From IMG/VR virus record IMGVR_UViG_3300043410_001533, positions 1-54,800 of that record: a stretch of DNA of 54,800 nucleotides. The stretch is one strand, 5' to 3'. The notes under the pieces were generated by a model, which was given only the letters and a program-made list of their open reading frames with translations, made no database searches and had not been told where the DNA came from. Source of the DNA: a virus. Taxonomy: Duplodnaviria; Caudoviricetes. Shown here piece by piece: positions 4,884 to 48,243 of this stretch. The translations under genes and the position numbers were made by a program. Position 1 is the first letter of the stretch. Each line of letters begins with the position of its first letter.

Positions 4884-5270
4884 TTACCACCCCGGGCAAT
4901 TCCAACGTTTAAGTGATGCGGCTTTACGGGTCGGACGGCCTTGGTCGTCCTTGAGAGGCCCCGGATTGCCCTCCATCCTAGCGCAAAATGAATCTCGTCG
5001 AGGTCCGCCTTGGGGCTGTGGAGCTTTCAGATTACTGCCAGTTTCCCGATTATACTTTGCCCGACCCTTCTTTGTCAATCCTGCCCCTTTACTAACCGGA
5101 AGCTTTTCGCCCCTACCGATCGCGAGGCTCGGACCGCCGTCTTTGAACTTCTTACCCTTGTCGGCCTTGACGAATTCTTTGCCTACCTTTTGAGGGACAC
5201 CCCCGAACCCGCCTTTCGTATGCGCGGCGGCTTGCATCAATCGATGCTGGGCGGCTGATTTGCTAGGCAT
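4884..5270 (-). CDS. Basic conserved phage protein (DUF6321-like)
   Basis: GLTKKGRAKYNRETGSNLKAP...RRDSFCARM...LKRWNC; carries one FKDGG motif. Confidence 0.65.
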   Translation of the reverse strand: MPSKSAAQHRLMQAAAHTKGGFGGVPQKVGKEFVKADKGKKFKDGGPSLAIGRGEKLPVSKGAGLTKKGRAKYNRETGSNLKAPQPQGGPRRDSFCARMEGNPGPLKDDQGRPTRKAASLKRWNCPGW

Positions 5271-5674
5271 TAGGAGTATGACTTGATCATCTCAAGCACT
5301 ACAGTATACGTGTCACCAGCGGACGCGTCAGCCGTTGAAAATACGATATTACCATTCTTACCCGCACCGGCATTGTTGGTGATACCGCCGAATTTCGAAA
5401 AATCATTCTCGAAGTTCGTGTTAACTGCACCCAAGAAAAATGGGACGTCTGTTGTGGCATCCCAATACATGCGCACTTCCATACCATGACATATCGACAT
5501 GATTTTATTAACCGTCACGCCAGTACATGCCTTGCCAAAATTATTTGGACTTAGATTAGCTACGTTAACTTTAGTGACTGCGGACTCTCCCGTGCCATCA
5601 CTAATATTCGTGAATTTCATGATCGCGAGACGTTCACCATCGAGTAACGTCTGACTTGTGACTGCATCAGCCAT
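5270..5674 (-). CDS. Conserved virion structural protein
   Basis: MADAVTSQTL.DGER.AIMKFTNISDGTGESAV.KV pattern; AGGA SD; located in the head module. Confidence 0.65.
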   Translation of the reverse strand: MADAVTSQTLLDGERLAIMKFTNISDGTGESAVTKVNVANLSPNNFGKACTGVTVNKIMSICHGMEVRMYWDATTDVPFFLGAVNTNFENDFSKFGGITNNAGAGKNGNIVFSTADASAGDTYTVVLEMIKSYS

Positions 5675-5718: not shown

Positions 5719-6507
5719 TTAACAGACCCGACCGCCCTTTTTGAACGTTCCCGAAAGTTCGGAAATCGCCACAGGACCACTCGGAGCTTTTTTGGGCATC
5801 GCTACGGCGCGGCCAGTATCAACTACGCCCCCCGTAGCAAAATGCTTTTTTGCGGCACCACCTTTTTTGTAGCCACCGGCGTTACCCATCTTGACGTCAC
5901 CCGTAGGAGCCGAATTGTTATCGGGTGTAGCACCCACAACCTTCGTAGTCTTATTGGTCATCGTCTTGATGATGCCACCATTCTTGAAGCCGCCTTGTCC
6001 ATCTACGACGCCGCCAGTCTTGTAACCGCCGGGTTTCGTGGATTTAGCGATACCACCAGTCTTCAAGCCTTTGTGGGCTTTGGATGCTGACATTCCTTCA
6101 TGGTGCTTCAGCTCTTTGCCTACGCCCTTGATCGCCTTCATCTCAGCTTTATGCATTGATGCAGACTCGACCTCACCACCCTTCTTCATCATGGGGCGAC
6201 CCATGGGAGCGGCAGGAGGCATTGCGGGGCGTGCAGGAGCGGGTAAACCGCGAGCTGGAGGAGTGGGGCGTGCGGCCATACGTTTAGCGGCCATCGCGCG
6301 AGCCGCGACGGGATTACCCATCGGAGCGGCGGGTGTACCCGCTAAACTGCCCATTACCCCACCGTCCATCTTTTTTACGGGCTTGAAGCCCGCTTTAGCA
6401 CCCTCAGCGTGCATACGCTTGTGAGTGGCAGAACCACCTTTCTTCAGCTTCAATTCCACTGAAGGTTCGGTAGTGTACATCTTCACCATTGGTTTAAATT
6501 CACCCAT
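5719..6507 (-). CDS. Lys-rich internal/core virion protein with nine xKxGG-type repeats
   Basis: LKKGG, KMDGG, MKKGG, LKTGG, YKTGG, FKNGG, YKKGG, FATGG, FKKGG; second gene after the major capsid; AGGAG SD. Confidence 0.65.
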   Translation of the reverse strand: MGEFKPMVKMYTTEPSVELKLKKGGSATHKRMHAEGAKAGFKPVKKMDGGVMGSLAGTPAAPMGNPVAARAMAAKRMAARPTPPARGLPAPARPAMPPAAPMGRPMMKKGGEVESASMHKAEMKAIKGVGKELKHHEGMSASKAHKGLKTGGIAKSTKPGGYKTGGVVDGQGGFKNGGIIKTMTNKTTKVVGATPDNNSAPTGDVKMGNAGGYKKGGAAKKHFATGGVVDTGRAVAMPKKAPSGPVAISELSGTFKKGGRVC

Positions 6508-7014: not shown

Positions 7015-7929
7015 TTAGACGCCAGCAGTGCCGTACATACCACGGGGGTCAGTCCAGCCCACTTGATAACGCTCAGTTGCCTTGTAGCGCATCGAGTCGG
7101 TCTCGAAATCACCTTCCATGGTCTTCTCCAAAGCACGGCGCATCAAGAGCTTCATGCCCTCGGGAGCGTCGGTCTGGACCCACCATGCGTTAGCATTGGT
7201 CAAACGGCTCAAGACTGCGGCACCTTCGTCCAGCAAGCCGATAGACTTGACGGGGTTGATGTCGTTGTTCGTTGTACCAGCGCGGAGCACTGACTTCAAC
7301 AGAACTTCAGCTTGGAAGACGTTGCCGGGAGCGACCACCAACTGGCGGGGCACCAAACGGATCTTCTTGCCGTTGTTATCCACTGCTTGACGAATCTGAA
7401 TCAACATCTGCTCAAGCGATGTTTGTGACAGATTCGCGGCTGTAGACAATTGGTTAGAGAATGTACCATTCACGATTGGGTGTGAAGTGCTAATCAGTGA
7501 CACGCCGTCACCACCGACGTAAGAACCGTTGAAAGCGCGGTTCAAAACGTTAGCGGACAGAGTCTCTTTAGTCTCAATCAATGATTGAGCCAAATGCTTA
7601 GCATACACCTGACCGATACGGATGTGGTCGCCGTCTTCCACCAACACTTTGGTCAATGCGAAGGCGAGGCCATACACATTGTACACATAGCGTTGCAAGA
7701 AGAGCACACCACCCTGTTGGTAGCTGACGGGAGTACCATCAGGCAACTGGGGAGCGGCACCAAAACCGTACAAGACGGGTTCTTCATGGTAGTTACGGGG
7801 AATGCCCTGTTCTTCACGGAAGACACGGGACCATTCGTCTTTACGCTGTTCGTAGATACCGTCGAAGCATTCGTTCAGAATTGGCTCGACGATACTACGA
7901 AAGTCGGTACTGCGCATTGGAGCGGCCAT
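7015..7929 (-). CDS. Major capsid protein (HK97 fold, Mu gpT-like family)
   Basis: EEPVLYGFGAAPQLPDG..VSY; YGLAFALTKVLVEDG; ETKETLSANVLNRAF; GDGVSLISTSHP; EGDFETDSMRYKATERY..GWTDPRGMYG. Confidence 0.9.
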   Translation of the reverse strand: MAAPMRSTDFRSIVEPILNECFDGIYEQRKDEWSRVFREEQGIPRNYHEEPVLYGFGAAPQLPDGTPVSYQQGGVLFLQRYVYNVYGLAFALTKVLVEDGDHIRIGQVYAKHLAQSLIETKETLSANVLNRAFNGSYVGGDGVSLISTSHPIVNGTFSNQLSTAANLSQTSLEQMLIQIRQAVDNNGKKIRLVPRQLVVAPGNVFQAEVLLKSVLRAGTTNNDINPVKSIGLLDEGAAVLSRLTNANAWWVQTDAPEGMKLLMRRALEKTMEGDFETDSMRYKATERYQVGWTDPRGMYGTAGV

Positions 7930-7942: not shown

Positions 7943-8515
7943 TTAAATAGCGTTAACGGACGCATTGAACTGCGACTCATTAACTTGAACTTGTACAACA
8001 GTGTACGCATCTCCCCATGCGTTATCAACGCCGGGGGTCAAACCAATAATCTTCAATTGCGCAGAAGAACCAGCGGCAACAACCGAGGTGCTAATAGTGC
8101 ACTGAGACAATCCAGTGGTCGTGGAACCTGCAGTCACATTACTAAAATCTGACTGTGCACCCAGCACTGTTTGTGGCAACGAGCCGTCGGCTTGAATGTC
8201 ATAAACGATCGCGGGATCTTGGTAGTAATAAGCCACGAGCGAGCCAGTCACGTAAGCAGTATTGGCGGGCCAATAGTTGCTAATACGGGGACGGCCGGTG
8301 GTGTCGGTCCATTGAACGCCTGCGAAGGCACCCAAGAACGCGTCGCCAGCGGCGGCGGCTTGCAAAAGGCCGGTGGTAGCCAACTTGACGGGCTGGCCCT
8401 TCAAGATATCGCTGGTATAACCAGACAGAATACCGTCAGTCAAAGCGACCGCACGGTCCAAACCGGAAGGATGGAACGAGGGGCGCAAACCGAACGGTGC
8501 ATTTGTTGAAGACAT
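7943..8515 (-). CDS. Minor capsid / decoration protein
   Basis: MSSTNAPFGLRP..., LGAFAGVQWTD..G.P..SNYWPA, DPAIVYDIQAD; immediately upstream of the MCP; start moved to the Met after the GGAG SD. Confidence 0.7.
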   Translation of the reverse strand: MSSTNAPFGLRPSFHPSGLDRAVALTDGILSGYTSDILKGQPVKLATTGLLQAAAAGDAFLGAFAGVQWTDTTGRPRISNYWPANTAYVTGSLVAYYYQDPAIVYDIQADGSLPQTVLGAQSDFSNVTAGSTTTGLSQCTISTSVVAAGSSAQLKIIGLTPGVDNAWGDAYTVVQVQVNESQFNASVNAI

Positions 8516-8547
8516 ATTAGTCACTCCAAATCATGGTTCAGAATCCG

Positions 8548-9087
8548 TCACTGAAAAGTAGGGACGGGCATAGGTTTATCAAGTTCACTGATGCCTTCAC
8601 CTTCAATCTGACCAAGACGCCTGCCATTACTGTCGCGCCCCATTGTCTGCTCAGCCTGAACACGGATTTTGTCCGCTTCATCCTGAGGAGCGTGATGGTG
8701 CAACTCTGCCATGATGTCCTGATAAACTTCCTCAGGCAACTTGTAGAGTAACATTTCATTGCAAGCGACGAATCCAGTGTGCTCACCGGCTTTAACTTTG
8801 TAGTTCTCAAAGCCCGGAACCTCTTCAATCCTTACTGGTTCGTAACCCATGCGAATTCGCTTGTGGATAGGGTCGTACCCATTGGTCGTTGAAAGCCAAC
8901 ATACGTGAAATCCCGGAATATCCGGAGGTTTTGGAAGGGACTCTTGAATCCATTCCGAACTGAACATCCTACGACGTTCTTGCGCGCTCGCCAGTTTTCC
9001 AGTCGCTGGACCGCGTTCACTATCCTGCTGTGCGCGGGACTCACGGCCACCACCTGAAAGGTCTTTTTTCAATCGATCGTCTCTCAT
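8548..9087 (-). CDS. Conserved head-module protein
   Basis: LPKPPDIPGFHVCWLS...RMGYEPV motif; lies between the scaffold and capsid genes. Confidence 0.65.
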   Translation of the reverse strand: MRDDRLKKDLSGGGRESRAQQDSERGPATGKLASAQERRRMFSSEWIQESLPKPPDIPGFHVCWLSTTNGYDPIHKRIRMGYEPVRIEEVPGFENYKVKAGEHTGFVACNEMLLYKLPEEVYQDIMAELHHHAPQDEADKIRVQAEQTMGRDSNGRRLGQIEGEGISELDKPMPVPTFQ

Positions 9088-9091: not shown

Positions 9092-10087
9092 TTACCCCTT
9101 ATTTGTATTCATGCGGTCATATTCCGCGTATTTACGAATCATCTTGTTACGCTCGGTGATGTTATCCCATCTACCGGCTTCCTTGATGGCGCGGACTCGC
9201 TCAGGTGACAACCGGAACTCGTTACCACGAGCTGTCGATTGTGATTCACGTCCTGAACTTGTTACCACGGTACGGGGTCTCCGATTTGACGACGGATTGT
9301 CGTTGCCGCTATTATAACGGTGCGGCAAATATTTTGTCAATCTATTGTCTAATTCTTCCCAGTAGTCGGCACTCTTGGGATCCCAGCCTTCGGCCACGAG
9401 AGCCTCATCCACCTTGGTGGCGACTTGGGAGTCCATATCCTTGCCGTTCGGGTCGTACCAGTCATTTCGAGCCATCCAGTCCGAGGCGTGACGCTTCAGA
9501 AGAGGGTCCGGAGCTTGAGGTACGGAATTACGTGTGGGTTCGGAGGCTACGGCGCGTTTCTTCAACGCTTCGAGTGCCTCCACTTGGCGACGGGCTTCAT
9601 ACCACGCCTCTTGCGCCTCGACGACGGAAGCTCCATCGGCCATCTCAGTAGCCTCTTTCACCTTCATCTTCGCGTACTGCAGACGCAAATTACCATCTTC
9701 GATCGCCTTGTCCAGTCGAGCGAGGTCCGAACCGGCTGTGCGCTTTTCCAAGACGCTTAGTCGCTCCGCCATCTGCTCATTTTGACGCTTTAGCGAATTA
9801 ATCAGGTGGTTCGACTCAGTCGCCTTCGCCTTCTGAAGCTTCTTCTTGAGCTGTCGCTCTTCGCGACGGGCCAGTCGAATCGCTTCACGCTCAGGGTCGG
9901 CGTGAGGTATATTATCGGCGGGATTATCATCATCGTCGCCGTCATCCGCGTCAACGCGACCACCGGTCTGGAGACCTTCGCCGTCATTGTCGGGGGTGTT
10001 TGGGGCCTCGCCGTCGGGCAGAGACACCACTGCGGACCCATCGGGTTCTTCCGCAAGTTGCAAGTCGAGTTTATCGTTAGAGGTCAT
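9092..10087 (-). CDS. Scaffolding protein (putative)
   Basis: Acidic N-terminus, long coiled coil, WMARNDWY..D..LVAEGWDP.S.DYWEELDNRL, basic C-terminal helix; position upstream of the capsid genes. Confidence 0.7.
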   Translation of the reverse strand: MTSNDKLDLQLAEEPDGSAVVSLPDGEAPNTPDNDGEGLQTGGRVDADDGDDDDNPADNIPHADPEREAIRLARREERQLKKKLQKAKATESNHLINSLKRQNEQMAERLSVLEKRTAGSDLARLDKAIEDGNLRLQYAKMKVKEATEMADGASVVEAQEAWYEARRQVEALEALKKRAVASEPTRNSVPQAPDPLLKRHASDWMARNDWYDPNGKDMDSQVATKVDEALVAEGWDPKSADYWEELDNRLTKYLPHRYNSGNDNPSSNRRPRTVVTSSGRESQSTARGNEFRLSPERVRAIKEAGRWDNITERNKMIRKYAEYDRMNTNKG

Positions 10088-10518
10088 AGGAACGCTTTCA
10101 CTTTCAAGGGATCACCTGTAACTTTCGCAATTACTTCGTGATCGTTAAACACACTGAAAAGTGCGGTCTCGCCGAGCGTTGGGTCACCGTAAGGTACTTC
10201 CCAGCGATCGCCGCCCCACTTTGGCATGCGAACATAGTCGCCGACATCGATCCAGTTGCCCTCGGGCCACGGTTCGAGTGTATCGCGTTTCTTGAAAGCC
10301 AGTGGACCTACCGCGATGACTTTCGCCACTTGGTTATTCCACTTTTCCGTTTCCTTCGTTTCTTCAACGAGTACGATTCCTGACGATGTCACGGTCTTCT
10401 TGGCGGCTCTCCACTGCACAAGAATACGCCCACCTACAGGCAAAGCACCGGGGTCTACTGCTGGAAATGCTTCCTGCAACGCGGCTTCATCCGAAGCCAC
10501 CGGTTGAGTATCACTCAT
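10084..10518 (-). CDS. groES: GroES-like co-chaperonin
   Basis: PVGGRILV...TSSGIVL...AKVIAVGP...VGDYV..PKWGG...NDHEVIAKV matches the cpn10 pattern. Confidence 0.8.
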   Translation of the reverse strand: MSDTQPVASDEAALQEAFPAVDPGALPVGGRILVQWRAAKKTVTSSGIVLVEETKETEKWNNQVAKVIAVGPLAFKKRDTLEPWPEGNWIDVGDYVRMPKWGGDRWEVPYGDPTLGETALFSVFNDHEVIAKVTGDPLKVKAFL

Positions 10519-10696
10519 CTTTCTCATCCTCTTTTAAAAGGTCGTTTAATATTACCAGAGCTTCTTCAAGCCCTTGGTGCTGGCCAACTAAGCGTTGGTA
10601 GGCCTCAAAGGTGACGGCATTGCCGTTCACCAATGACTGCGCGATCGCCGATTTGCGGACCTCGATAGCACCGACGAGGTCACTGACGTATCGCAT
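10511..10696 (-). CDS. Small conserved head-module protein
   Basis: 61 aa, G.A.TFEAYQRLVGQHQGLEEA; lies between portal and GroES. Confidence 0.65.
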   Translation of the reverse strand: MRYVSDLVGAIEVRKSAIAQSLVNGNAVTFEAYQRLVGQHQGLEEALVILNDLLKEDEKDE

Positions 10697-10863
10697 TATT
10701 TCTTCTTAGCTTGCGCTAATGCACCGCCGCCACGCTTTGGTGCGCTTGGTGTCTTCGCGGGTTCTTTCGCACCCAACGATGTACCATCGAGCTTCGCGCC
10801 CATGGCCATTCGCTTGTGGTAAGGTACGTCTTGGCCCATTTGGGCTGAATCATTGGTAGCCAT
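10696..10863 (-). CDS. Small basic protein (55 aa), missed by the ORF track
   Basis: Manual translation MATNDSAQMGQDVPYHKRMAMGAKLDGTSLGAKEPAKTPSAPKRGGGALAQAKKK; AGGAG SD; fills the gap exactly, with a TAATG overlap. Confidence 0.65.
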   Translation of the reverse strand: MATNDSAQMGQDVPYHKRMAMGAKLDGTSLGAKEPAKTPSAPKRGGGALAQAKKK

Positions 10864-10864: not shown

Positions 10865-13363
10865 TTACACTCCTAAAGTTCGTTGTGCGCTCTCTTGCGC
10901 GGCCAATGCAGTCTGCTCCTGCTCGTGCTTCAGAATCGCCGCGTCGTGCGTCAATTCTGCAGTCTTGATCCGTTCTTCGGTCAAGTTGTCGGATGCGTTC
11001 AGCGCGATCTTGATCTGCTGTTCGCGATTCTTGTTCAACGCGTCGTTTTTGATGCGCTCTTGCTCCAGTTCGAGTTCGATCTTGTCGCGCTCTGCACGTC
11101 GCTTGGTCTCCGCCATCGAAGTCTGGAGAATCACTTGGTCCGAGCCATCCATCTGTGGCTGGGGCTTGAGCTTCTGCACAGTCTGCAAGATCTGTTGCAT
11201 CGCGGGCATGACCTTTGCAAACGCCTCTTGCGCGTCCATTTGGGTGTGCTGAGACGCCAGCGCGTACAACTTGTCGATCTCGCCAGTGATTCCCGCGATA
11301 TCGTAGTCCTTCACAGGGCGGCCGAGCGATTCCTCGACGTAGCCGTTCATATGGCCGAGATACCAGAGCATCAAGTGTTGCTTGAAATGCTCGAGGAAAG
11401 CGGGCAGGAACGCTGGCGCGATAATCGGATTGGACCCCAGCAGTGGGTTCAGGGCGAAATCGAGGTGGCTCTGGATGTGTGCCAGTTGGTTCTGGTGTGG
11501 GTACGCAAACGCCGCACGCCCGATCGACATCGCCGCATTCTCTTCGGCGGCATTAATCTCCATCGGCTCGGCCGTCGCGGGCATCAATTCCTGCACGTTC
11601 GGTATCTTCATCTGCTTCAGCGCACGCTGGACGACTGCTCGACGATCGAAAAGATCGGGGTACTTGTCCATGTAGGCCATCACAGCCTGTGTCTGGGCCA
11701 TCCGCTGAGTCTCGGAGAAGATGTGCGGATCGCTCACCGGTATCACGTCGGTGTTTCGATTGAAGTCTTCGCGCCTGATGTCCAGCTCTTGGACCACGCC
11801 GCCCATTCGCATCTCTTCCAAGTACCAGCGATTGATACGCTGAAGTACCTTCAGAACACGCGATTGTGAGTCGTGCAGTCGTGCGTGAATCGCCGAGAAT
11901 ACTTTCGAACCCTGCTCGATCATCGCTTGAGTGGTGCCGACTGGTGTATTGGCATTCAACTCCGCGATTTTCTCCTCAGAGGTGGTCACCACGCCCTTCG
12001 CGGCGTCCGTCAGGAAGCCCACGAGCTTGAAGAGCACCTCGCTCGGTGGGTTGAAAGGCATCGGCATGGCGATTTTGCGGATATCGTCCACACCGGGAGC
12101 ACCTTCGATCTCGGTCACTTGCGTCACTTCGACGTTCTGTGACTGTCCAGAGATCTTTGCGCCCTTGATCTTGAGCATCGTGGCGGCGTTGTTAATGTGC
12201 GCTGTGTCCAATAGAGCACGCAAACCACCGGTAATAGCGGCAGAAAGACCACCAATGAGATGAGGCAGTCCAATAGCGTACGCACCACGCCATGGGATGA
12301 ACTTGAATTCGATGATGTGATCGAGCTTCGCCATGGCTTCATCGCCCTGCTCCCAGTTCCGGTACATGCCGACGACTTCCGTGTTATTCTCGTCGATCAT
12401 CAAAATGTAGGGAGCCAATTCGCCTTTGGAGTGGGAATCGTCTTCTTCGGCAATAAACGCGTAGATGTGGTACACGCGACGCAAGCCGTCGGTGTCGTCA
12501 CTCCACTGCTTACCTTCGATCTTGTTATTCGCCTTCTCAGGTGACGTTGGCTCCGGCTCCATGCTGGCGCGAGTGAATGACACGTCGCGGTAGAGACCCG
12601 ATGCCATGCGCGACTCGAATTCCTGCTGGGTGATGTCTTGCACCTCAGTCACACGCTGTGCAGTGTAGAAATTCGCGGCGGAGAAAGGCAGTAGAATGTT
12701 GTCGATCGCCACGAATTCCGCGCAGGGTCGCTTTTTGCGATCGTCGTACCAGAGCTTCAGGAACTGCGAGCCGCCGAGTGGCAACTGGGTGAGCATTTGC
12801 TCTTGCTCGTCGCGGAATTCCTCGATCTGCTCAGTGAGTTGCCAGTTCATGAAGTCGCGTTTGCGCTCGGCCCGTTTCGTTTCCTCTTCGCTCACGTCGC
12901 CGAGGATGTTCGTACGCACTGGGCCATCCGGTGGGAACAGCTCCTTGATAGCACGCGACTCGAAATCAATACAGGCCTCAGCCATGACGGGGTGCACAAC
13001 TTTGCTGGCACCTTGGAACTGCGCACCACCGGGAGCATCGTGTCCCAAGCCCGTACGCTTGAGTCCCTCTTCGTACTGCTTATCGCGCTCTTTGCGTGCC
13101 TCTTTGTCCTTCTCGATCAGATCGAGGTAGTGCATCGCGAGTTTATCAAGCTTCCAAGGGTCCAGCTCGTCGGCCAGATTCGCGTAGAAGTCTTGGTCCT
13201 CGCTCGGCCCTTTGAATTCGTCCATGCGAACGATTGCGGACCCGTCCGGTTGCTCTTCCACTTCCGCGTAGGGGTCCTCCATGTCAAGGTCGAACACCAT
13301 GCCCTGCGTGTCCTCTGGACCTGCGGGTGCTTCCATCTGCGGTTGTGGGAATTCTGTTGCCAT
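10865..13363 (-). CDS. Portal protein
   Basis: 832 aa; FYANLA, GASKVVHPVMAEAC..F, ELFPPDGPVRT, LPLGGSQFLKLWYD, GLPHLIGGL; typical of podovirus portals; downstream of the terminase. Confidence 0.9.
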   Translation of the reverse strand: MATEFPQPQMEAPAGPEDTQGMVFDLDMEDPYAEVEEQPDGSAIVRMDEFKGPSEDQDFYANLADELDPWKLDKLAMHYLDLIEKDKEARKERDKQYEEGLKRTGLGHDAPGGAQFQGASKVVHPVMAEACIDFESRAIKELFPPDGPVRTNILGDVSEEETKRAERKRDFMNWQLTEQIEEFRDEQEQMLTQLPLGGSQFLKLWYDDRKKRPCAEFVAIDNILLPFSAANFYTAQRVTEVQDITQQEFESRMASGLYRDVSFTRASMEPEPTSPEKANNKIEGKQWSDDTDGLRRVYHIYAFIAEEDDSHSKGELAPYILMIDENNTEVVGMYRNWEQGDEAMAKLDHIIEFKFIPWRGAYAIGLPHLIGGLSAAITGGLRALLDTAHINNAATMLKIKGAKISGQSQNVEVTQVTEIEGAPGVDDIRKIAMPMPFNPPSEVLFKLVGFLTDAAKGVVTTSEEKIAELNANTPVGTTQAMIEQGSKVFSAIHARLHDSQSRVLKVLQRINRWYLEEMRMGGVVQELDIRREDFNRNTDVIPVSDPHIFSETQRMAQTQAVMAYMDKYPDLFDRRAVVQRALKQMKIPNVQELMPATAEPMEINAAEENAAMSIGRAAFAYPHQNQLAHIQSHLDFALNPLLGSNPIIAPAFLPAFLEHFKQHLMLWYLGHMNGYVEESLGRPVKDYDIAGITGEIDKLYALASQHTQMDAQEAFAKVMPAMQQILQTVQKLKPQPQMDGSDQVILQTSMAETKRRAERDKIELELEQERIKNDALNKNREQQIKIALNASDNLTEERIKTAELTHDAAILKHEQEQTALAAQESAQRTLGV

Positions 13364-13397: not shown

Positions 13398-14600
13398 TTA
13401 ATTTTCGTGACCATACTGCTTAATGTCGCGTGCCGTTTCCTTCAGGGCGTTGTAGTCCTCGGGACTCAGGCGACGAAGGTCGCGCATTTCGGGGCGAATG
13501 CTAAACGGTCCATTCTGAAACGCGGGGCGCACCATCTCGCCAAATATCGACATCAGCGGCGTGTCTTGCCCGACGTGCGGCAAATTCTCGGCCGGTGCTT
13601 TAATTCGATCGCCCACCATGGCTGGCCAACCCTGTGGTGCTTTAGGGATGAGCTTTTCCACCATCACGCCAGCTTCGTCGGGTGACATGCCGGTGCGCAT
13701 CAATGCGGCCATGAGGCCCGGAATCGCTGACGCTTCGTACGCTTGAGGGGCTACAGACTCTGCGACTTTGGCCACGTCGCCAATGCCGCCCAAATCGGGC
13801 AATGCGCCACGCATCACCTGACCCGCCGCCGATTGCAGGACCTCGCGCCGCGTCATGGGCGTTTCGCTCACCGATTTCAGCGTGGACTTCGCCGCGCCTT
13901 TGCCGGGGTCGATGGTCACGGATTTCTCGGTGACGGCTGGCGCACCTCGCATCTCGGACTGCATTTTCTCCAGTGCCTTGGTATCCATCTTGGCGAGTGG
14001 GAAATCCGCCGCCTTGCCGAGGCCGAGAAATCCACGACGTGCGGGCGATTCGAGCTTCACACCCTTTTGGAGCATCTCCGCCGCCATCTGGTCCAGCGTC
14101 TTGGCCGCACTGCCGCCCTTCGCATAGGGCTGGGCATCGGGGATGAAGCGTCCACCGTCCGCCATGTCGGGCACGCTGAAATCGATCGCGCCGCCGTTGG
14201 CGAATTTCTTTGTCTTCTTCGGTGCGGCACTCATGAACTGGTCGGCACGAACCGGTGCCTCCTCGAAATCGCGGCGGCGTGTGGCAGTCGTCGCACTGTA
14301 CGGATTGCGTGCTTCCTTGAGCATTTCGGCGATCAACAGTTCGCGAATGCGAGGATCGGGGTACTGCATTTCGAAATCCATCTTCGCACGGCGATTGGAC
14401 TCCTCAGGGTCGATAGTTGGCGGTGCTGGCGCGTAGGCCGGACCACGACGCTTGGCCAGCTCCTCCATTTCGCCCGGCATGAGTTCACCGGAGCGAAACA
14501 GCATCGAGAGCGGCACAGTGTTGCGCATACCAGCGAATAGCGTTGCCGCGTCCATCGGGTCGAGACTCTGGGCGAGTTCGTCAAGGAAGTTACTGGGCAT
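13398..14600 (-). CDS. Putative internal virion protein with three GG motifs
   Basis: 400 aa between TerL and portal; FANGG, MADGG, YAKGG; GAGG SD. Confidence 0.6.
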   Translation of the reverse strand: MPSNFLDELAQSLDPMDAATLFAGMRNTVPLSMLFRSGELMPGEMEELAKRRGPAYAPAPPTIDPEESNRRAKMDFEMQYPDPRIRELLIAEMLKEARNPYSATTATRRRDFEEAPVRADQFMSAAPKKTKKFANGGAIDFSVPDMADGGRFIPDAQPYAKGGSAAKTLDQMAAEMLQKGVKLESPARRGFLGLGKAADFPLAKMDTKALEKMQSEMRGAPAVTEKSVTIDPGKGAAKSTLKSVSETPMTRREVLQSAAGQVMRGALPDLGGIGDVAKVAESVAPQAYEASAIPGLMAALMRTGMSPDEAGVMVEKLIPKAPQGWPAMVGDRIKAPAENLPHVGQDTPLMSIFGEMVRPAFQNGPFSIRPEMRDLRRLSPEDYNALKETARDIKQYGHEN

Positions 14601-16071: not shown

Positions 16072-16639
16072 TCATATTCACATCTTTCGAACGGAATTTC
16101 GCATCGTACCCCATGAGCGTGAACTGGAGCAGTGAATCACTGAACTTCTTCACAGTGTCGCCCGTCTTGACGCCCTGATGCACGATCGGCTCGTCGTGTC
16201 CAATCACTGAGCGGCGGTACGCTTCGGCACGCATCGTATCGACCATCTCCTCTTGGATGCTGTCCATGATGCTGTCGAACATTTTGTGGTCACCGCGCCA
16301 GCCGATCAGCGTCTGCCGATGGATGCCCGCCGTGGTGTAAGCGTGACGCAATGAGAATTTCGCATGGGGTGGACCATCACGGAATTCGGCGATGATGATC
16401 AGCATTTTGAATGCTTTGGTCTCTTCGAGTAACGCCAAATCACCAACCGCTTTGAGCGTGGGATCGTTGCACTCTTTCGTGTGTGCAAGATGACTGGCTG
16501 AATTGGGCGGGTGCCGCACGCGGTCACGCACGATTGCGTCCAGCAGTGTTTGCACAGAGATTCCCGCACGACGCTCGTACTCGGCGATCGTCTGGGGTCC
16601 GATGTCTTTCAGCAGTTTGAGATCGTCATTGAAGGCCAT
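15980..16639 (-). CDS. terS: Terminase small subunit
   Basis: HTH-like AGIHRQTLIGWR followed by EAYRRSVIGHDEPIVHQG...KKFSDSLLQFTL; upstream of TerL; start taken at MAFNDDL just downstream of a promoter-like sequence. Confidence 0.75.
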   Translation of the reverse strand: MAFNDDLKLLKDIGPQTIAEYERRAGISVQTLLDAIVRDRVRHPPNSASHLAHTKECNDPTLKAVGDLALLEETKAFKMLIIIAEFRDGPPHAKFSLRHAYTTAGIHRQTLIGWRGDHKMFDSIMDSIQEEMVDTMRAEAYRRSVIGHDEPIVHQGVKTGDTVKKFSDSLLQFTLMGYDAKFRSKDVNMNVSGQLDSNINIEGLRDRLAQRLNSRAKAE

Positions 16640-16646
16640 GGAGCGA

Positions 16647-16676
16647 ATTAAACCACAAATGCCACGCGGCACACAA
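16647..16676 (-). promoter_or_regulatory. Putative promoter for the packaging operon
   Basis: TTGTGT-N18-TTTAAT with TG extension; 13-mer GTGGTTTAATTCG identical to that at 17121-17133. Confidence 0.4.
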
Positions 16677-16819
16677 TATGCGGCTTTGTCTACAGCTGAG
16701 TTATGAGACTGAAGCTGAGCATAACGCGGAGTTATAAAGCTTTCGTGCGCGTACACGAGGAGGGTAGAGAGAGGCCCTAAGTGGTGGTGGAAGAATATTC
16801 GACGTCTGGAGACTGCGGT

Positions 16820-42697: not shown

Positions 42698-43672
42698 TTA
42701 TGGATAATCAACGGTATCGTTACCGTAGTTCGACGTATCAGTATTCGATGTGTCGAAATTAAAATCCGGACTGTTAAAGATATTACTTAATGATGTGCCA
42801 AGTGAGCTGATTGCGTTGCCGAATCCGGCGGCCGCACTTGTACCACCAGTACCGGAGGCAAAGAGTGACCCGAGGCCCGCGATCTGCGCCAATGGTGACG
42901 TAGAATAAGCACCGGGGATCGGAGCGTTAGCTTCCTCGGACACAGTGCTTGGTACTTTAACATTCGAAAACACATTGGCCGCGCCGGTGGCGGCGGCAAG
43001 TGGGGCCATGATTTCGGTCTGCGCGAGCTTCTGCTCTTCACCACCGAGATTGTATAAACGCTCGAGTTCTTTAAGCTTAGCATCCAACTCGGTCGTAGCG
43101 AGACCTTTCTCAGTCTCTGCCGCTTGGCGATACAAGCCCGCTTGATCCATTGCGGCCTTCAATGCGCTATCGTAACCGGACGAAAGTGCTTTAGTCTGTG
43201 CGCCGAGCAGGTTCGCTTGTACGTCAGCACCCATTTGCCCCATAGCATCGTACATGCGCTTACCGCCTGTGCCGCCAGTACCGGCGAATGCGCCCTTAAG
43301 AGAGGGAATCAGTGAACGCTGAAGGCTTTGCTGTTGTAGACGCTCCATCTCGTTCACTACACTGGAGGTGTAGGGATTCATGAAGCCCTGAATCATGTCA
43401 GGCGTGACGCCTGCGGCGGCAAGGCGCGCGGCATCTTGGGCTTCACCGAGCATGCCTTCGTAGCCACTCAAACCGCCAGCCTTAGCAGTATCCAGCACAC
43501 CAGTCTGAAGCTCCGACATGGGAGCGACTAGGTCCGCGCCGGTTTTGCCGAGCAGTTCAGTGCCGGGGGCGGCAAGGCTTTCGAGGTACTGGTTGTACCA
43601 GTCGGGGCCTTTAGTCTCTACCTCTTTGGTAGTCGTGATATTCGGTAGAGGATCACCTTGGAGGATGCTCAT
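42698..43672 (-). CDS. Internal virion / DNA ejection (pilot) protein
   Basis: VAPMSELQ, FMNPYTSSVV, GAFAGTGG.GG, C-terminal SPLAQIAGLGSL amphipathic helix. Confidence 0.7.
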   Translation of the reverse strand: MSILQGDPLPNITTTKEVETKGPDWYNQYLESLAAPGTELLGKTGADLVAPMSELQTGVLDTAKAGGLSGYEGMLGEAQDAARLAAAGVTPDMIQGFMNPYTSSVVNEMERLQQQSLQRSLIPSLKGAFAGTGGTGGKRMYDAMGQMGADVQANLLGAQTKALSSGYDSALKAAMDQAGLYRQAAETEKGLATTELDAKLKELERLYNLGGEEQKLAQTEIMAPLAAATGAANVFSNVKVPSTVSEEANAPIPGAYSTSPLAQIAGLGSLFASGTGGTSAAAGFGNAISSLGTSLSNIFNSPDFNFDTSNTDTSNYGNDTVDYP

Positions 43673-46600
43673 AATACACCTTTCAGATATGCCAAGGGCG
43701 ACTTAGCCTTTGGGGGAATTGATTTAAGGGAGCCGCCACGCTTGTGCTTGCGGATTGCTTCCCGCATAGCGTCCAGCTTCTTGGCACCCTCTTTGTTTGA
43801 GCCGTCGCCCAGTGCCGCCACGATCTCCGCGTCGAACACGTATTCACCGTCTGCGAGCTTGGCCGGGATAAGGTCGTCCTGACCGCCGCCCGCGCCCTGT
43901 ACGTAGTGAGATCCTTTGTGGGGTACATCGCCGCCTGACGCCGCCATGAGTGGTGAAGCCATTATTTTACCACCGTCGGCATGGTTTTGTACAGTCCCCC
44001 CATTCATGAACGGTTCGAGGACCTTGGAGTAGGAAGGTTCCGTGCCGTAGGCGTAGTAATCGGCCTCGGGGGTCTTGGGCTGGTCTTCCAGTCCTGATGC
44101 GCGGCGCAGGGCCGACAGTGCTTGTGCTTCTTGGAACATAGGTGTACTCTCGGGCAGTAATGCGCCCAGTCCGGCAAGGGGCGCGATGTTACGGAATCGA
44201 CCACCGAGCCACGTCTCGGCGATGTCGTGATCTTTGGCGGCGTAGGCGGGTTCGTTGAGGGCAACTCCGGCCATCATCCAAGGGAGGACCTTCTTGGTCA
44301 CTGGCGTCTTGGTAGTCGGCGTGGTCTTTGTAACCTTACTAGGGTCCACTATATCGCCTGTATTAATGTCGATGACGGTAGAACCAATCTGAACCAGATC
44401 TTTGTTGATCACGGTGACGGGGCCATCCACACTTGTTACTTCACCAGTGTCGGTGTTAGTGTTGATAGTTACTGTTGTACCAGTATTGGTATCGGTCACC
44501 GTGTTCGTAGTGGTATTAGTATTGGTATCGACGGTCGTATTAGTGTCAATGCCAGTGTTGTTATTAGTATTAGTAGTCGTGGTAACGCCAGTATTTGTGT
44601 CGGTGGTAACAGTCGTATTGGTGTTAGTATTGGTGTTAGTGGTGGTCATAGTCGTTGTGTTCGTGTTAGTATCGACTGTCGTATTCGTAGATATGCCAGT
44701 GTTGGTGTTAGTGCTCGTATTGGTGTTAGTGTCCGTACCGGTGTTAGTGTTAGTGTTAGTGTTAGTGTTAGTGTTAGTACCGGTGTTTGTATTCGTACCA
44801 GTATTAGTATTAGTACCGGTGTTCGTATTCGTACCAGTATTAGTGTCCGTACCGGTGTTAGTGTTAGTGTTAGTATTAGTACCGGTGTTCGTATTCGTAC
44901 CAGTATTAGTATTAGTATTAGTACCGGTGTTCGTATTCGTACCAGTATTAGTGTCCGTACCGGTGTTAGTGTTAGTGTTAGTATTAGTGTCCGTACCGGT
45001 GTTAGTGTTAGTGTTAGTATTAGTACCTGTCGTAGTCGCTGTACCAGTGTTAGTGTTAGTACCTGTCGTAGTCGCTGTACCAGTGGTAGCATTGGATACA
45101 GCGGTAGTTGCGGCATTGGAAGCCGTGGTTACATCAGCACCGGCGGCTATAGCGGCATTGGCGGCAGTTGCGGCTGTAACGTTCACATTGGCACCGGTAT
45201 TATTCGCGGCGGCCACTACTGAGGAGATTGTGCTGTCTACGTTAGCGCCATTACTGATCGCATTGCTCACCGAAGTATCTACGGCTTGAGTGGTGTTGCC
45301 GGTCGATTCGAAGATCGAGGCGAAATCGGTCGCCGCTGATGTGTCAGCTCCAGTGGTCGTAGTGTCACTACCTGTAACTTCAGTGACCGAGGTGTCCACA
45401 CCCTTAGTGGCCCCAGTCGTTCCGGTTCCGGTGCCGGTGTCGCTGATCTTGGTAATGGTTTCGGGGCGGAATGTGCCGTCGGTAGATGTCAGACCTTGCT
45501 CAGCAAAAGCATTTTTCAGCTCGGTGTTCACGTTCGCACTACCATGAGAAGTGCCACTAATACCTGAAATCGTACCGGATGCTTTAGCACCCGTAAAGCC
45601 GCCGACCACCGACTTAGACAATGCAGTGTTGAGATCGTCACCAGTCGCCAGTGCAATAGCGAATTCTTCCCAGCTCTCCTCAGGGAATTCTTTACCAGCA
45701 CCAGCGACGACTTTACCGCTGAATTTCTCCAAGGCCTTTTCGTAGGATTTGATAAGTGCTGTGTCCACCAGTCCAGCAGTACCCATCGTGATCGCACCTG
45801 CAATAATACCATTGCGCTCTGCGATCTTCTCAGCTTGCTCGGGCGGAGTACCTTTTGCGATCTCGTCGTTGAATGTCTGGCGGTTGTTGGAACCCATGGA
45901 TTCCAGAGCATTGGCACTCATATCAGTGAGGAGGCCGAGCATCTTGCCGCCGTATTTGAATGCCGCGCCACCGAGCAACATTGGTAGTGCCTCTTGACCC
46001 ACTTCTTTTGCGGCGGCGACCACCACCAACGGTTGGTCTTTAATCGCTTTAAGCGCGGCGGCGAGTTTCCCGGTGTAGGCTTCCTCCGCCTGCACTTTGT
46101 CCCAGAAATTTTGGTTCGCCTCGGTTACACCGGGGATCTCAGTCTCTTTACCAAGCTTTTCGAGGCTCATACCTAACTGTACCAGCGCATTGTAGCGACC
46201 AACCAGTCCCGTTTGGCTTGCCGCAGTACCAATGTCCGCAATCTGCTCACCAAGTAGCCCAGAAGTGGTCGAGATCAACTGCTTGATCGTATCCGCTTGT
46301 GGACCTTCGAGTGTGTTAGCCCACTTGGACAGGTCCGCAAGTGCGTTATCGATATTGGACACTTCGGTCTTAGTCTCGGTATCAGTGCCGCGATTTCCGA
46401 CTCCGGCGATGTCTACTTTGAACGGACTAGTGTACTTACTATTCTCGTACGATTCGGCCGCGCTGTAAGTCGAGTTTCCAGTGAGCACGTCAGCCAGAGT
46501 CGCGGCTTTGAGCACACCAGTGCCATTCGCAGTGAATTTATCGTAATTCGTCAGGAATTTAGTCTGCTCGGCATCCGTGAGCTGGTCCACACTGGTCTTG

Positions 46601-48243
46601 CCAAGGGACTTAACATACTCGTTCACGAGCTTCGCATCGACTGCTTGCTTCTCGTCAGCGGGCAAATCGCCGGTCGCTTTATTTACGATGTAGGTCTTGC
46701 CGCCAACAGTGAAGGAGTCATTACCCTTCGCAATCGCGAGAGCGGCGGCCTCATCCAGTGAATTCACATCTGCATTGTCGAGATTCAGAGTGTTCTTTGC
46801 ACGGTTGTCGGTGACTTGTGTATTAGTTGTGGTTCCGACCACGGTGCTCGCGGCGTCGAGCGCGTCAGCGTCGGTAGCACCGGCATTTTTAGCTTGCACG
46901 AATGCGTCAGCACCGCTAGTCACGCTTGTAGCCACAGACTTGGCAATGTTAGCATTGGCGAGATTATCAGCCGCTTTGATCGTGTTGTTCAGCCCAGCCG
47001 CCGCATTAATGATGGCGACTTCATTGCCCGAATTCAGGGCGTTGACAAGGTTCAAAGCCGCGCCAGCGGTCTTAGTGTCAGCACTATTGGTCAGCGTTCC
47101 GAGCGAGTTTAACGCCCCGGCGTAATTACCAGCCGCCACATTAGTCGCGACATTATAAGCATTGCCAGCGTCAGCGAGCGAGATTGTGTCGGTGAGCATC
47201 GTGCTACCGGCCATTTTGCCTACGGTATCATTTTGCAACAGCGACATTGCAAGTGCACCCATGTCGCCTTGATCGATTGCTTTGGTGACTCGCAAAGCAG
47301 TGGCGGCATCATTGAACCCAGCTACACCCGCGAGGCTGGCGAGACCGCCGAGCACGTCGCCTTGATCGATCGCAATCGCGGCATTGGCGGCCATGGCGAA
47401 CGGAGCGACACCGGGGATAAATTGTGCAATAGCCAATAGTGGTGCATAATCGCCCACATCACTACTGGAAGCTCCAGTGGTGTAAAAGATAGGACGGCCT
47501 TGCTCATCAAACGCCGCACGAAATGCGGTATTGCCAGAACCTGCGTAAGTCCCTGAGAATGCATTACCCGTGCCGCGCTCGCCATAGTCATTAATCAACA
47601 CTTCACCAGTGTTTTTATTAATGATCTGAGTGACGGTTTGATCGGGTACAGTTTCAGTCCCACTCTCGGTCTCGTATGTATAACCGGGTATTACTGAAGT
47701 CTTTTGGCCGACTTGCGAGATGTCAGTGACGCCTGATGCCACCAGATTCTTAGCCATCGCCTCCGCATTGGCGGCGGCGGATCCGAAGCCTTCACCCGTC
47801 CACTTGGAAGTCGTCCCCTGTGCGAGAATTTGGTCTTTGACTTTATTCACGTCATCGGCGGCCAGATTGTAGGTCTGCCCAGCGAATTGAGCCGCAATAG
47901 TGTTGGCGGCAGGTGTGGTGGATTGTGTGGTGGCTCCAGTGGTCGCCTTTGCAAGTGCACCGGTGGTAGGCTCCACATAATCCGAGGCATCTTCAAGGAC
48001 TGTGCTTTTACCACCAGTAACAGAGGCTAGCGCACCTGTAGCAGGGGCATCGACTATGGGCTGAGTGTAAAGACTATAAGCTTGGGAAATCGTTGGTGCG
48101 CCAATACCTAGCGTGTTTAAATAGTCGATAGCCTGCTGTTGAACAGCGGCGGTATCTCCACCCGCAAGTCCAACGAATTCCCCATACGCGGCGGCGATAT
48201 CTTCGGGTGTGCTGGATGATGACAGGTATTCGTAAAGTGCCAT
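43669..48243 (-). CDS. Large internal virion protein (1524 aa) with Thr-Asn repeat tract
   Basis: C-terminal GAGGGQDDLIPAKLADGEYVFDAEIVAALGDGS..GAKKLD domain; several GG motifs; hydrophobic helices. Confidence 0.7.
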   Translation of the reverse strand: MALYEYLSSSSTPEDIAAAYGEFVGLAGGDTAAVQQQAIDYLNTLGIGAPTISQAYSLYTQPIVDAPATGALASVTGGKSTVLEDASDYVEPTTGALAKATTGATTQSTTPAANTIAAQFAGQTYNLAADDVNKVKDQILAQGTTSKWTGEGFGSAAANAEAMAKNLVASGVTDISQVGQKTSVIPGYTYETESGTETVPDQTVTQIINKNTGEVLINDYGERGTGNAFSGTYAGSGNTAFRAAFDEQGRPIFYTTGASSSDVGDYAPLLAIAQFIPGVAPFAMAANAAIAIDQGDVLGGLASLAGVAGFNDAATALRVTKAIDQGDMGALAMSLLQNDTVGKMAGSTMLTDTISLADAGNAYNVATNVAAGNYAGALNSLGTLTNSADTKTAGAALNLVNALNSGNEVAIINAAAGLNNTIKAADNLANANIAKSVATSVTSGADAFVQAKNAGATDADALDAASTVVGTTTNTQVTDNRAKNTLNLDNADVNSLDEAAALAIAKGNDSFTVGGKTYIVNKATGDLPADEKQAVDAKLVNEYVKSLGKTSVDQLTDAEQTKFLTNYDKFTANGTGVLKAATLADVLTGNSTYSAAESYENSKYTSPFKVDIAGVGNRGTDTETKTEVSNIDNALADLSKWANTLEGPQADTIKQLISTTSGLLGEQIADIGTAASQTGLVGRYNALVQLGMSLEKLGKETEIPGVTEANQNFWDKVQAEEAYTGKLAAALKAIKDQPLVVVAAAKEVGQEALPMLLGGAAFKYGGKMLGLLTDMSANALESMGSNNRQTFNDEIAKGTPPEQAEKIAERNGIIAGAITMGTAGLVDTALIKSYEKALEKFSGKVVAGAGKEFPEESWEEFAIALATGDDLNTALSKSVVGGFTGAKASGTISGISGTSHGSANVNTELKNAFAEQGLTSTDGTFRPETITKISDTGTGTGTTGATKGVDTSVTEVTGSDTTTTGADTSAATDFASIFESTGNTTQAVDTSVSNAISNGANVDSTISSVVAAANNTGANVNVTAATAANAAIAAGADVTTASNAATTAVSNATTGTATTTGTNTNTGTATTTGTNTNTNTNTGTDTNTNTNTNTGTDTNTGTNTNTGTNTNTNTGTNTNTGTNTNTNTNTGTDTNTGTNTNTGTNTNTGTNTNTGTNTNTNTNTNTNTGTDTNTNTSTNTNTGISTNTTVDTNTNTTTMTTTNTNTNTNTTVTTDTNTGVTTTTNTNNNTGIDTNTTVDTNTNTTTNTVTDTNTGTTVTINTNTDTGEVTSVDGPVTVINKDLVQIGSTVIDINTGDIVDPSKVTKTTPTTKTPVTKKVLPWMMAGVALNEPAYAAKDHDIAETWLGGRFRNIAPLAGLGALLPESTPMFQEAQALSALRRASGLEDQPKTPEADYYAYGTEPSYSKVLEPFMNGGTVQNHADGGKIMASPLMAASGGDVPHKGSHYVQGAGGGQDDLIPAKLADGEYVFDAEIVAALGDGSNKEGAKKLDAMREAIRKHKRGGSLKSIPPKAKSPLAYLKGVL
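44445..45085 (-). repeat. In-frame hexamer tandem repeat (ACTAAC/ACTAAT/ACCGGT/ACGGAC) encoding (TN/TG/TD)n
   Basis: Visible GTGTTA/GTATTA arrays and larger duplicated blocks such as GTACCGGTGTTCGTATTCGTACCAGTATTA. Confidence 0.9.

Follow-up and report, generated by a model that had tools for sequence, protein, structure and literature searches.

The question raised by this locus is why one short peptide ending in Gly-Gly recurs in several otherwise unrelated proteins of a single podophage genome. The window, that is the whole stretch of DNA analyzed in this study, is a complete IMG/VR record (IMGVR_UViG_3300043410_001533) of 54,800 bases with a completeness estimate of 98%, and its minus strand holds almost all of the genes. 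An earlier note on this DNA proposed that the peptide, [FYMLH][AK]xGG, is either a docking tag for the procapsid or a Gly-Gly protease site. As judged from sequence comparison, selection acts on the motif as a peptide, divergent relatives share it, and core structural proteins have fewer copies than expected by chance. It is restricted to accessory proteins of the head module, effectors of the polyvalent type, the N-terminus of the scaffold and a giant, putatively internal protein, and it sits at C-termini and module joints. The core of the motif is usually preceded by Lys or Arg and lies in disordered sequence. We hold, with middling confidence, that it is a portable recognition peptide which would mark internal or ejected accessory proteins for incorporation into the procapsid, whether or not it is also cut. 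The part of the earlier proposal that stands is the ground common to its two options, a selected, portable linear motif on accessory head-module proteins and on proteins that are likely injected.

Motif enrichment in the window and in related loci

The chance level of the strict motif, [FYMLH][AK]xGG, was taken from 2000 within-protein shuffles of the window open reading frames (ORFs). Eighteen copies were found in 7 of the 66 ORFs versus 3.62±1.95 in the shuffled controls (maximum 12), which places the motif above chance. When the repeat protein 5719..6507 is excluded, 10 copies remain versus 3.33 in the shuffles, and 10 was reached in 0.002 of the shuffles. One strict match, LAAGG in the SNF2 helicase 35295..37037, is probably a chance match. 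The instances cited in the earlier note all exist in the genes named and all lie on the minus strand (Table 1): FKDGG in 4884..5270; FANGG, MADGG and YAKGG in 13398..14600; YKKGG and YAKGG at the C-termini of two paralogs; and FMNGG, HADGG, AASGG and HKRGG in the 1524-amino acid (aa) protein, in which FKYGG762 had been missed. The nine copies given for 5719..6507 are corrected here to eight strict copies, in a protein with 12 GG dipeptides, and LQTGG is present in the scaffold 9092..10087, although it does not fit the pattern that the note itself had defined. The recurrence in at least seven unrelated proteins is real, though slightly overstated: the scaffold instance is off-pattern, and the two C-terminally tagged proteins are true paralogs and form one family, which leaves six independent families rather than seven.

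The codons vary among the 18 window instances, which indicates that selection acts on the peptide and not on the DNA; a DNA-level linker or recombination junction is ruled out for the same reason. The motif was defined after the sequence had been inspected, its modular carriers are extensively shuffled and the number of window proteins hit (6 vs. 3.1 expected, p=0.09) is not significant alone. These are points in favor of a peptide without specific function, such as a flexible linker, a Gly/Lys-rich low-complexity by-product or a module-shuffling junction. We consider this very improbable. In the carrier classes described below, the motif becomes 9 to 27 times rarer after shuffling that preserves composition, the GG and its flanking columns are invariant across families at 27-75% identity, and core proteins are depleted in the motif rather than neutral. 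The enrichment, the codons and the invariance in the paralog family largely refute the idea.

The decisive support, at the level of sequence, is conservation among relatives, which is stronger than the window counts alone. Eighty IMG/VR loci were fetched around capsid genes 89-98% identical to that of the window. Their plus-strand ORFs of at least 40 aa, in a greedy non-overlapping set of 1274, were assigned to window genes by BLASTP, and motifs were counted in unique sequences only, with the expectation from 200 within-protein shuffles. In classes whose counts are non-independent events, since orthologs are related, the repeat protein had 648 motifs versus 23.8 expected (65 of 65 proteins), the DUF6321 family 68 versus 4.7 (48 of 65), the scaffold 16 versus 0.9 (16 of 61), the core proteins (capsid, portal, terminase, GroES-like, 179-aa, 193-aa, adaptor and 124-aa) 3 versus 15.2 (3 of 437) and all other ORFs 19 versus 28.7 (18 of 549). 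The ORFs between the large terminase and the portal, hereafter terminase-portal ORFs, had 100 versus 10.8 (35 of 38) and are exempt from this caveat, since most of them align neither with one another nor with the 400-aa protein of the window. Thus, a specific set of proteins has a strong excess of the motif, whereas the core has a deficit. The earlier note had not noticed it in the capsid or portal proteins, in agreement with the relatives, where the strict motif occurs in 0 of 79 capsid and 2 of 55 portal orthologs.

An unbiased logo was tabulated from all 399 GG contexts in the terminase-portal ORFs. At position -3 it is enriched in M (x4.3), Y (x3.0), H (x2.4) and F (x2.2), at -2 in A (x2.2) and at +2 in V (x3.9), and none of this pattern was seen in the GG contexts of the "other" proteins. 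The combined logo reads [KG][KG]-[MYFLH]-[AK]-x-G-G-x-[VAI]. Head-targeting signals are already known as a concept; no description of this motif was found in the literature searched on related phages, polyvalent proteins and packaging signals.

Position of the motif at C-termini and module joints

The clearest C-terminal instances are those of the paralogs 23424..24692 and 24997..26319, which are 33% identical (E=4e-45). The family has 59 database relatives, of which 23 were fetched and 22 aligned with the two window proteins (n=24). R409, Y410, G413, G414, L415 and A418 (RYxxGGLxxA) are invariant in all 24 sequences, which span 27-75% identity. The final 14 residues account for 6 of the 26 alignment columns that never vary, and conservation runs past the GG up to the carboxyl end (...GGLVAALQS, ...GGLAHAAVIS). 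In the homolog P0308 (643 aa) the paralog domain is fused to ART-PolyVal; GRYQSGGLV lies at the junction and the protein ends in KKKGGLVAALQS, so that the tag is found at both module ends. An ESM Atlas search for 23424..24692 was uninformative, the best score (0.79) being to unnamed viral clusters. Directly upstream of the tagged paralogs, at 26210-27079 on the minus strand, lies a histone-deacetylase-family protein (Pfam Hist_deacetyl, E=2e-27). Such a neighbor (284-289 aa) precedes the single paralog homolog in 4 of 5 related loci, the upstream DNA of the locus L085 being too short.

The terminase-portal ORFs of relatives are 350-1544 aa long, hypervariable and made up of multiple, heavily shuffled modules. 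A Pfam scan covered 28 of the 44 unassigned motif-bearing ORFs, 21 of them terminase-portal, and found ART-PolyVal (PF18760) in 9 of these 21 and PcfJ in 1. In DSL-LC04, an annotated PcfJ-like protein at this position carries FAMGG, MADGG and FAEGG within its first 60 residues. Polyvalent proteins of portal-terminase phages have been predicted to be packaged in the capsid, injected and proteolytically processed, in the passages concerned of Iyer et al. 2017 (PMC5512222). The relatives' ORFs resemble the proteins described there in that they are large and multi-domain, carry polyvalent-associated domains and lie beside the portal and terminase genes. The words "linker" and "glycine" do not occur in the main text of that paper, and its passages on these proteins describe no common linker or C-terminal tag. 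The 400-aa protein of the window has no Pfam match and no recognized domain. It is a minority type with another conserved C-terminal domain and internal motifs only, of which it has 3 versus 0.08 expected in shuffles.

In the 38 polyvalent-type ORFs, the ends of homology blocks lie close to the motif. Of 626 internal BLAST-block ends (high-scoring segment pairs of ≥50 aa at E≤1e-8, near-identical full-length pairs removed), 23.6% were at most 15 aa from a motif versus 9.2±1.7% at random (maximum 14.4% in 500 randomizations), and the ends pile up 0-15 aa past the GG. The same ORFs also tend to end in the motif. A GG is found in the last 32 aa of 31 of the 38, versus about 10 in random internal windows, and a C-terminal match to basic..GG-x-[VAIT] in 25 of the 38 versus 1 of 437 core proteins.

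The 1524-aa protein 43669..48243 lies in a block of putative internal or ejection proteins. Its tandem motif, EP[FY][ML]NGG[TS]VQK[YH]AxGG[KI]IM, has been retained by 7 of 8 related loci, the exception being L092, where YKRGG alone replaces it; HKRGG persists in no more than 3 of the 8. The C-terminal block of the protein, HKGSHYVQGAGGGQDDLIPAKLADGEYVFDAEIVAALGDGSNKEGAKKLD (43669-43960, minus strand), is kept in 8 of 8 related loci. The C-terminal region had no Pfam family at E≤5, and its last ~100 aa have C-terminal counterparts in proteins of MW202545.1 (639 aa) and Caulobacter phage RW (580 aa). In the scaffold, the strict motif takes the place of LQTGG in the 16 of 61 orthologs counted above.

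The DUF6321 gene shows how the motif joins modules. It is a string of small basic modules, found elsewhere as stand-alone PHROGs of ~50-100 aa (phrog_16759, 16028, 17747 and 4689), and two PHROGs labelled "virion structural protein" begin with a stretch that the N-module matches as well. Between modules, relatives have either the motif or a break into separate ORFs. Among 43 unique DUF6321 modules, the strict motif lies directly before 30 and another xxxGG before 3, and the other 10 start their own ORF, beginning within 9 residues of the start codon. No module (0 of 43) is fused to an upstream module without GG. In the split form (e.g. L067) the upstream ORF ends ...TAKVK, where fused forms read ...TAKMKxGG, followed by VSLAVGRGEK.

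Small ORFs of relatives between the DUF6321 and adaptor genes (L072:6785-7420, L074:5930-6634 and L074:6644-7003) share a C-terminal block of ~25 aa, GGKINLxxCxVSTxxKNKxxxNW, and other small accessory ORFs end ...SCW or ...KVNW. Cys or Trp is the terminal residue of 58 repeat proteins and 57 members of the DUF6321 family, out of 65 each, and of 0 of 437 core proteins. The 55-aa protein just downstream of the portal gene (Table 1) ends in what is possibly, though uncertainly, a weak tag. Small motif-bearing ORFs are found at the same position in HTVC027P and DSL-LC04.

Docking or processing

The pattern in the DUF6321 family is also one that a maturation or processing site would leave, if a host protease, or one that is phage-encoded and unrecognized, cut at or next to the Gly-Gly. 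We judge this unlikely, though it is a rival of some weight. Cargo modules would be set free by such a protease, short C-terminal tails would be trimmed, the scaffold would be nicked and the repeat protein would be broken up into small basic peptides. A GG directly before 33 of the 43 DUF6321 modules, the 10 with their own ORF and no motif, and the complete lack of fusions without GG are what such cutting would give. The joined modules likewise exist as stand-alone PHROG families of ~50 aa, and homology-block ends gather near the motif in the terminase-portal ORFs. Depletion in the core would be expected from avoidance of accidental cleavage, one protein has 6-16 sites, and proteolysis of polyvalent proteins is predicted in the passages of PMC5512222 noted above.

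Several observations do not fit cutting. Many instances lie 1-8 residues from the C-terminus, where a cut would remove only a tiny tail, and these short tails are themselves conserved, as in the terminal Cys of 58 of 65 repeat proteins and the GGLxxA... that continues to the end of the paralogs. A Pro follows the GG in 21% of the GG contexts of the DUF6321 family, and Pro after the cleavage site is unfavorable for many proteases. The capsid protein (304 aa) begins directly at the HK97-like N-arm region and has neither a propeptide nor a delta domain.

No protease was found either, as the earlier note had also remarked. A Pfam scan of 71 window ORFs gave no peptidase family at E≤0.01, clan CE and other cysteine proteases included, and there was none among the PHROG matches; the capsid protein matches "head maturation protease" PHROGs over the capsid part only. 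A candidate was the 179-aa protein 8548..9087, encoded between the scaffold and capsid genes, in which H61, C109 and H130/131 are invariant in the window's clade. Residue 109 is Val in RW and Ile in CRP-901. It is Val also in HTVC027P and DSL-LC04, which bear the motif and likewise do not keep His61, so the 179-aa protein was dropped as a hidden cysteine protease. Its AF2 model (pLDDT 66.8) had no fold match, protease-like or other (Foldseek best E=0.97, VIA-wide best Z=3.9). Docking and cleavage are compatible, and a tagged protein may dock and then be cut.

The repeat protein

The protein with the most copies in the window, 5719..6507, belongs to a family in which each member has 6-16 strict copies (median 10 in 65 unique proteins). 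Cys is the last residue in 58 of the 65, and most end GG-x(1-4)-Cys. A database search gave at least 4382 matches at E≤0.001 among 8000 candidates scored, none of them with a Pfam domain or an informative name. When 14, and later 67, of 120 listed matches were aligned, the invariant columns were the GG pairs and their flanks; the repeat number varies by insertion of whole units. The protein has no PHROG family and no Pfam family even at E≤5; the Pfam KGG repeat, a stress-induced acidophilic repeat, was not matched. It is predicted to be disordered, the AF2 model having a mean pLDDT of 47.9 with no residue ≥70 (68-row alignment). Residues 1-25 (MGxFKPMVKMxTTEPSVxLKLKKGG) are almost invariant family-wide and may be a separate anchoring element.

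Such a composition brings to mind the basic, DNA-binding or charge-neutralizing segments of internal head proteins, of which the internal proteins of T4 and the core peptides of adenovirus are analogues. Both the repeat protein and the DUF6321-family protein are strongly basic, with pI values of 10.4 and 10.7, there is an excess of K at motif positions -4 and -5, and the repeat protein is predicted to be disordered. It is quite unlikely, in our estimate, that the motif is no more than a part of disordered segments of this kind, recurring as a shared means of binding packaged DNA and not as a signal between proteins. Its core is also found in the acidic N-terminus of the scaffold and on proteins of pI 4.4-7.8, and charge does not explain M/Y/F/L at -3, V at +2 or the invariant RYxxGGLxxA. 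In addition, the procapsid of tailed phages fills with protein before DNA is present.

Core head proteins and named relatives

The nearest named relatives of the portal are MW202545.1 (59%), the Caulobacter phages RW/KcrB/RLK/GB2A (46%), the roseophages CRP-901/902 and the pelagiphages HTVC027P/HTVC023P, every one of them a GroES-encoding podophage. In named phages, motifs were counted in greedy ORF calls on both strands and compared with 300 shuffles, the fraction being that of shuffles which reached the observed number. The motif is enriched in MW202545.1 (17 vs. 4.0 expected, fraction 0.000), MW202675 (12 vs. 2.3, 0.000) and DSL-LC04 (5 vs. 1.7, 0.033), which are distant members of this GroES-encoding group. 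The count is not significant in HTVC027P (3 vs. 1.7, 0.240); the remaining counts were 4 vs. 3.3 in RW (0.417), 2 vs. 1.4 in HTVC023P (0.413), 2 vs. 1.8 in MinM2 (0.547), 0 vs. 3.3 in CRP-901 (1.000) and 0 vs. 1.2 in Alcaligenes phage QDWS535 (1.000).

In MW202545.1 the carriers are a repeat-protein ortholog (449 aa, 9 strict motifs), its 171-aa neighbor ending FKKGGKVNW, and an 890-aa terminase-portal protein with further copies. Nearly all matches in MW202675 are in four large post-portal ORFs, one of which ends IYHARGGVAK, and annotated small post-portal ORFs of HTVC027P carry FKKGG, YKVGG/YKKGG and a terminal FKNGGKK. The motif tracks the presence of polyvalent-type and small modular accessory proteins and not the core.

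The core itself was traced with profile hidden Markov models (HMMs) built from the IMG/VR orthologs of eight head proteins (61-aa, GroES-like, scaffold, 179-aa, 193-aa, capsid, adaptor and portal). It was found in MW202545.1, RW, CRP-901, HTVC027P and DSL-LC04, with a single gap, the 61-aa protein in DSL-LC04. The HMM search of these five reference phages therefore found no head-module gene restricted to motif-bearing phages; the presence of head genes does not discriminate, because the eight-gene core is detected in all five save for one gap.

Since the head module encodes a Cpn10-family protein (10084..10527), the motif might also be thought to mimic the mobile loop of GroES and bind the apical domain of host GroEL, and the loop of the RW homolog, KKTKGGIILT, is superficially like FKNGGIIKT and YKTGGVVDG. 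We find this barely credible. The GroES mobile loop has an I-V-L triplet as its consensus, whereas the motif has one conserved hydrophobic position past the GG (x-V-x, at +2). The loop of the window's own GroES-like protein, TSSGIVLV, has no GG, RW and CRP-901 have GroES homologs but no motif enrichment, and the carriers are disordered or unrelated proteins rather than Cpn10 folds.

Proposed function of the motif

If the motif is a recognition peptide for the procapsid, the tagged proteins would be virion-internal cargo that is later ejected. The tag would dock on a conserved component of the procapsid, namely the lumen of the capsid protein, the scaffold or the portal, and the disordered basic repeat protein with its 6-16 copies would be a multivalent occupant or organizer of the docking sites. 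Docking is favored by the C-terminal position of the tag, conservation past the GG, the double tag of P0308, the lack of a detectable protease and the lack of a capsid propeptide. The carriers with ART-PolyVal or PcfJ and those matching PHROGs labelled "virion structural protein" look like cargo, which would support a loading tag. A more specific form of this reading is possible, and we put it forward tentatively, as rather doubtful: true cargo loading, in which a tag of 7-14 residues docks on the luminal face of the HK97-fold shell or on its scaffold and loads interchangeable anti-host effectors, such as ADP-ribosyltransferases and other polyvalent modules, for injection, with the repeat protein as a CsoS2-like multivalent thread or condensate-forming organizer.

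Incorporation into the procapsid has to be weighed against several points. First, the location of the tagged proteins in the virion is deduced from gene position, domain content and database labels. Secondly, in a simple scheme of one tag for one cargo it is hard to see where a protein with 6-16 tags would belong. Third, the scaffold instance is optional; a relaxed xAxGGxV is seen in many orthologs and about one third have none. Fourth, where DUF6321 is a separate ORF (10 of 43) the preceding motif is gone and the stand-alone module is untagged, which fits cleavage at least equally well. Fifth, RW, with a capsid protein 78% identical, and CRP-901 keep the head core without motif enrichment; any receptor would thus be lineage-adapted or not needed for head assembly. 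Lastly, no receptor for the tag was found in this analysis, and the capsid protein and portal are candidates only. When a complex was predicted from the capsid protein, the 179-aa protein and residues 383-422 of the paralog family (its C-terminal 40 aa), both runs returned "no answer" (score 0.00), which speaks neither for nor against binding. PDB sequence searches with 7943..8524, 8548..9087 and the capsid protein gave nothing below E=0.5.

Comparison with known systems

The motif was compared with several known systems, the details of which are given as general background. The cargo-loading peptides of encapsulins, with a consensus of the GSLxIGSLK type, are among the closest likenesses. In both cases a short, portable, mostly C-terminal peptide containing Gly lies in disordered tails of unrelated cargo proteins (putative cargo here) encoded beside an HK97-fold shell gene, and the tag stays as the enzymes that bear it change. 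The terminal peptide is present here as RYxxGGLxxA in 24 of 24 paralog-family sequences and as GG in the last 32 aa of 31 of 38 terminase-portal ORFs; the internal copies are atypical. The sequence differs, however, [MYFLH][AK]xGGx[VAI] being unlike GSLxIGSLK. The shell here is also the capsid of a tailed phage with portal, scaffold and DNA, and the tag is found at joints and in 6-16 copies in one protein.

In T4 and in the Dar system of P1, short signals bring an ADP-ribosyltransferase, together with internal proteins that are small and basic, into the prohead, from which they are later injected. The T4 signals are a capsid targeting sequence and gp21 sites on the internal proteins and Alt; they are N-terminal and coupled to a prohead protease that cuts the capsid too. 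The likeness lies in short signals shared by internal proteins (putative ones here), with scaffold or core proteins carrying the motif repeatedly. In contrast to T4, the tag described here is C-terminal or internal, no protease is detectable and the capsid orthologs are free of the motif (0 of 79). No prohead protease gene was found in the head module by the Pfam and PHROG scans, and there is no cleaved capsid propeptide with the motif.

The maturation sites of adenovirus adenain and pS273R of African swine fever virus (ASFV), (M/L/I)XGG-X, have a hydrophobic residue at P4. They resemble the motif in the hydrophobic residue before G-G, in their presence on several core- or scaffold-like proteins including very basic ones, and in short Cys-containing C-terminal peptides. 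They differ in register, the hydrophobic residue of the present motif being at P5. Moreover, the window yielded no cysteine protease, of clan CE or otherwise, and the virus is a tailed phage. CsoS2 of alpha-carboxysomes is a basic disordered protein with many copies of short motifs, thought to thread the shell interior and couple cargo to it. The repeat protein is likewise basic, disordered and rich in copies of a short motif, but the motif and the shell are unrelated, and contact between repeat protein and capsid is conjecture here.

Other genes of the window

The features discussed are listed with the other identified genes in Table 1; gene identities are from PHROG and Pfam scans. The GroES/Cpn10-like gene (10084-10527, minus strand) lies between the portal and scaffold genes, inside the head module, and is kept in 5 of 5 reference phages. 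DatZ, the MazG-like protein and PurZ form a complete Z-genome (2-aminoadenine) module at 27330-29855 on the minus strand, adjoining the family A DNA polymerase, and none of the three had a tblastn match (E≤1e-3) in the fetched stretches of MW202545.1, RW and CRP-901. A small SSB-like protein (31615-31878, minus strand) ends ...DDIPF, which we take to be the classical acidic C-terminal tail of SSB. Three consecutive genes of the replication block (33683-35254, minus strand) match the Pam3 gp34-, gp33- and gp32-like families PF23977, PF23984 and PF23992. In the GC-rich stretch 16900-20450, long plus-strand ORFs (16903..17643, 17907..18740, 18762..19622 and 19944..20450) overlap minus-strand ORFs. 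They had no PHROG matches, the three scanned with Pfam had no matches there, and several of the overlapping minus-strand ORFs match PHROGs; the plus-strand ORFs are probably spurious.

Table 1. Positions of motif instances and identified genes in the 54,800-base window.
Feature	Position	Strand	Description
Small basic modular protein (DUF6321 family)	4884..5270	-	phrog_16759-like N-module, then FKDGG (5133-5147, aa 42), then DUF6321
Repeat protein	5719..6507	-	262 aa, pI 10.4, 17.6% K+R, C-terminus FKKGGRVC
LKKGG21	6433-6447	-	Repeat protein copy
MKKGG107	6175-6189	-	Repeat protein copy
LKTGG148	6052-6066	-	Repeat protein copy
YKTGG162	6010-6024	-	Repeat protein copy
FKNGG174	5974-5988	-	Repeat protein copy
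YKKGG213	5857-5871	-	Repeat protein copy
FATGG223	5827-5841	-	Repeat protein copy
FKKGG255	5731-5745	-	Repeat protein copy
Major capsid protein	7015..7929	-	HK97-like, no delta domain; Pfam Phage_capsid_4
Scaffold-like coiled-coil protein	9092..10087		
LQTGG(RV), off-pattern	9959..9973	-	Acidic N-terminal region of scaffold-like 9092..10087
GroES-like (Cpn10-family) protein	10084..10527	-	Pfam E=5e-8
55-aa basic protein	10696..10863	-	Just downstream of portal gene; ends ...PKRGGGALAQAKKK
Portal protein	10865..13363	-	phrog_1216
FANGG/MADGG/YAKGG cluster	14112..14204	-	aa 133-163 of 400-aa protein 13398..14600, between large terminase and portal
Large terminase	14590..16071		
Small terminase	15980..16828		
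C-terminal tag RYKKGGLAHAAVIS	23427..23468	-	422-aa protein 23424..24692; YKKGG eight residues from C-terminus
C-terminal tag RYAKGGLATALDA	25000..25038	-	440-aa paralog 24997..26319; YAKGG seven residues from C-terminus
DatZ-like HD hydrolase	27330..27893	-	
MazG-like dATP/dGTP pyrophosphohydrolase	28178..28768	-	
PurZ-like adenylosuccinate synthetase homolog	28647..29855	-	
Family A DNA polymerase	29780..31615		
Tandem FMNGGTVQNHADGG	43969..44010	-	~100 aa from C-terminus of 1524-aa putative internal/ejection protein 43669..48243
SU10-type adaptor	51704..52339		
Lysozyme	52406..52909		

Significance

How podophages without a prohead protease choose the proteins that are enclosed and injected is poorly understood, and polyvalent anti-defense proteins are only predicted to be packaged. 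If the motif does mark proteins for the procapsid, the proteins that a very abundant group of aquatic (freshwater and marine) podophages injects could be predicted by a simple rule from sequence. It would also account for the exchange of hypervariable effector modules without loss of packaging, and could serve as a means of bringing foreign proteins into phage capsids. If it is instead a Gly-Gly processing site, it would point to an unrecognized maturation protease in this group.

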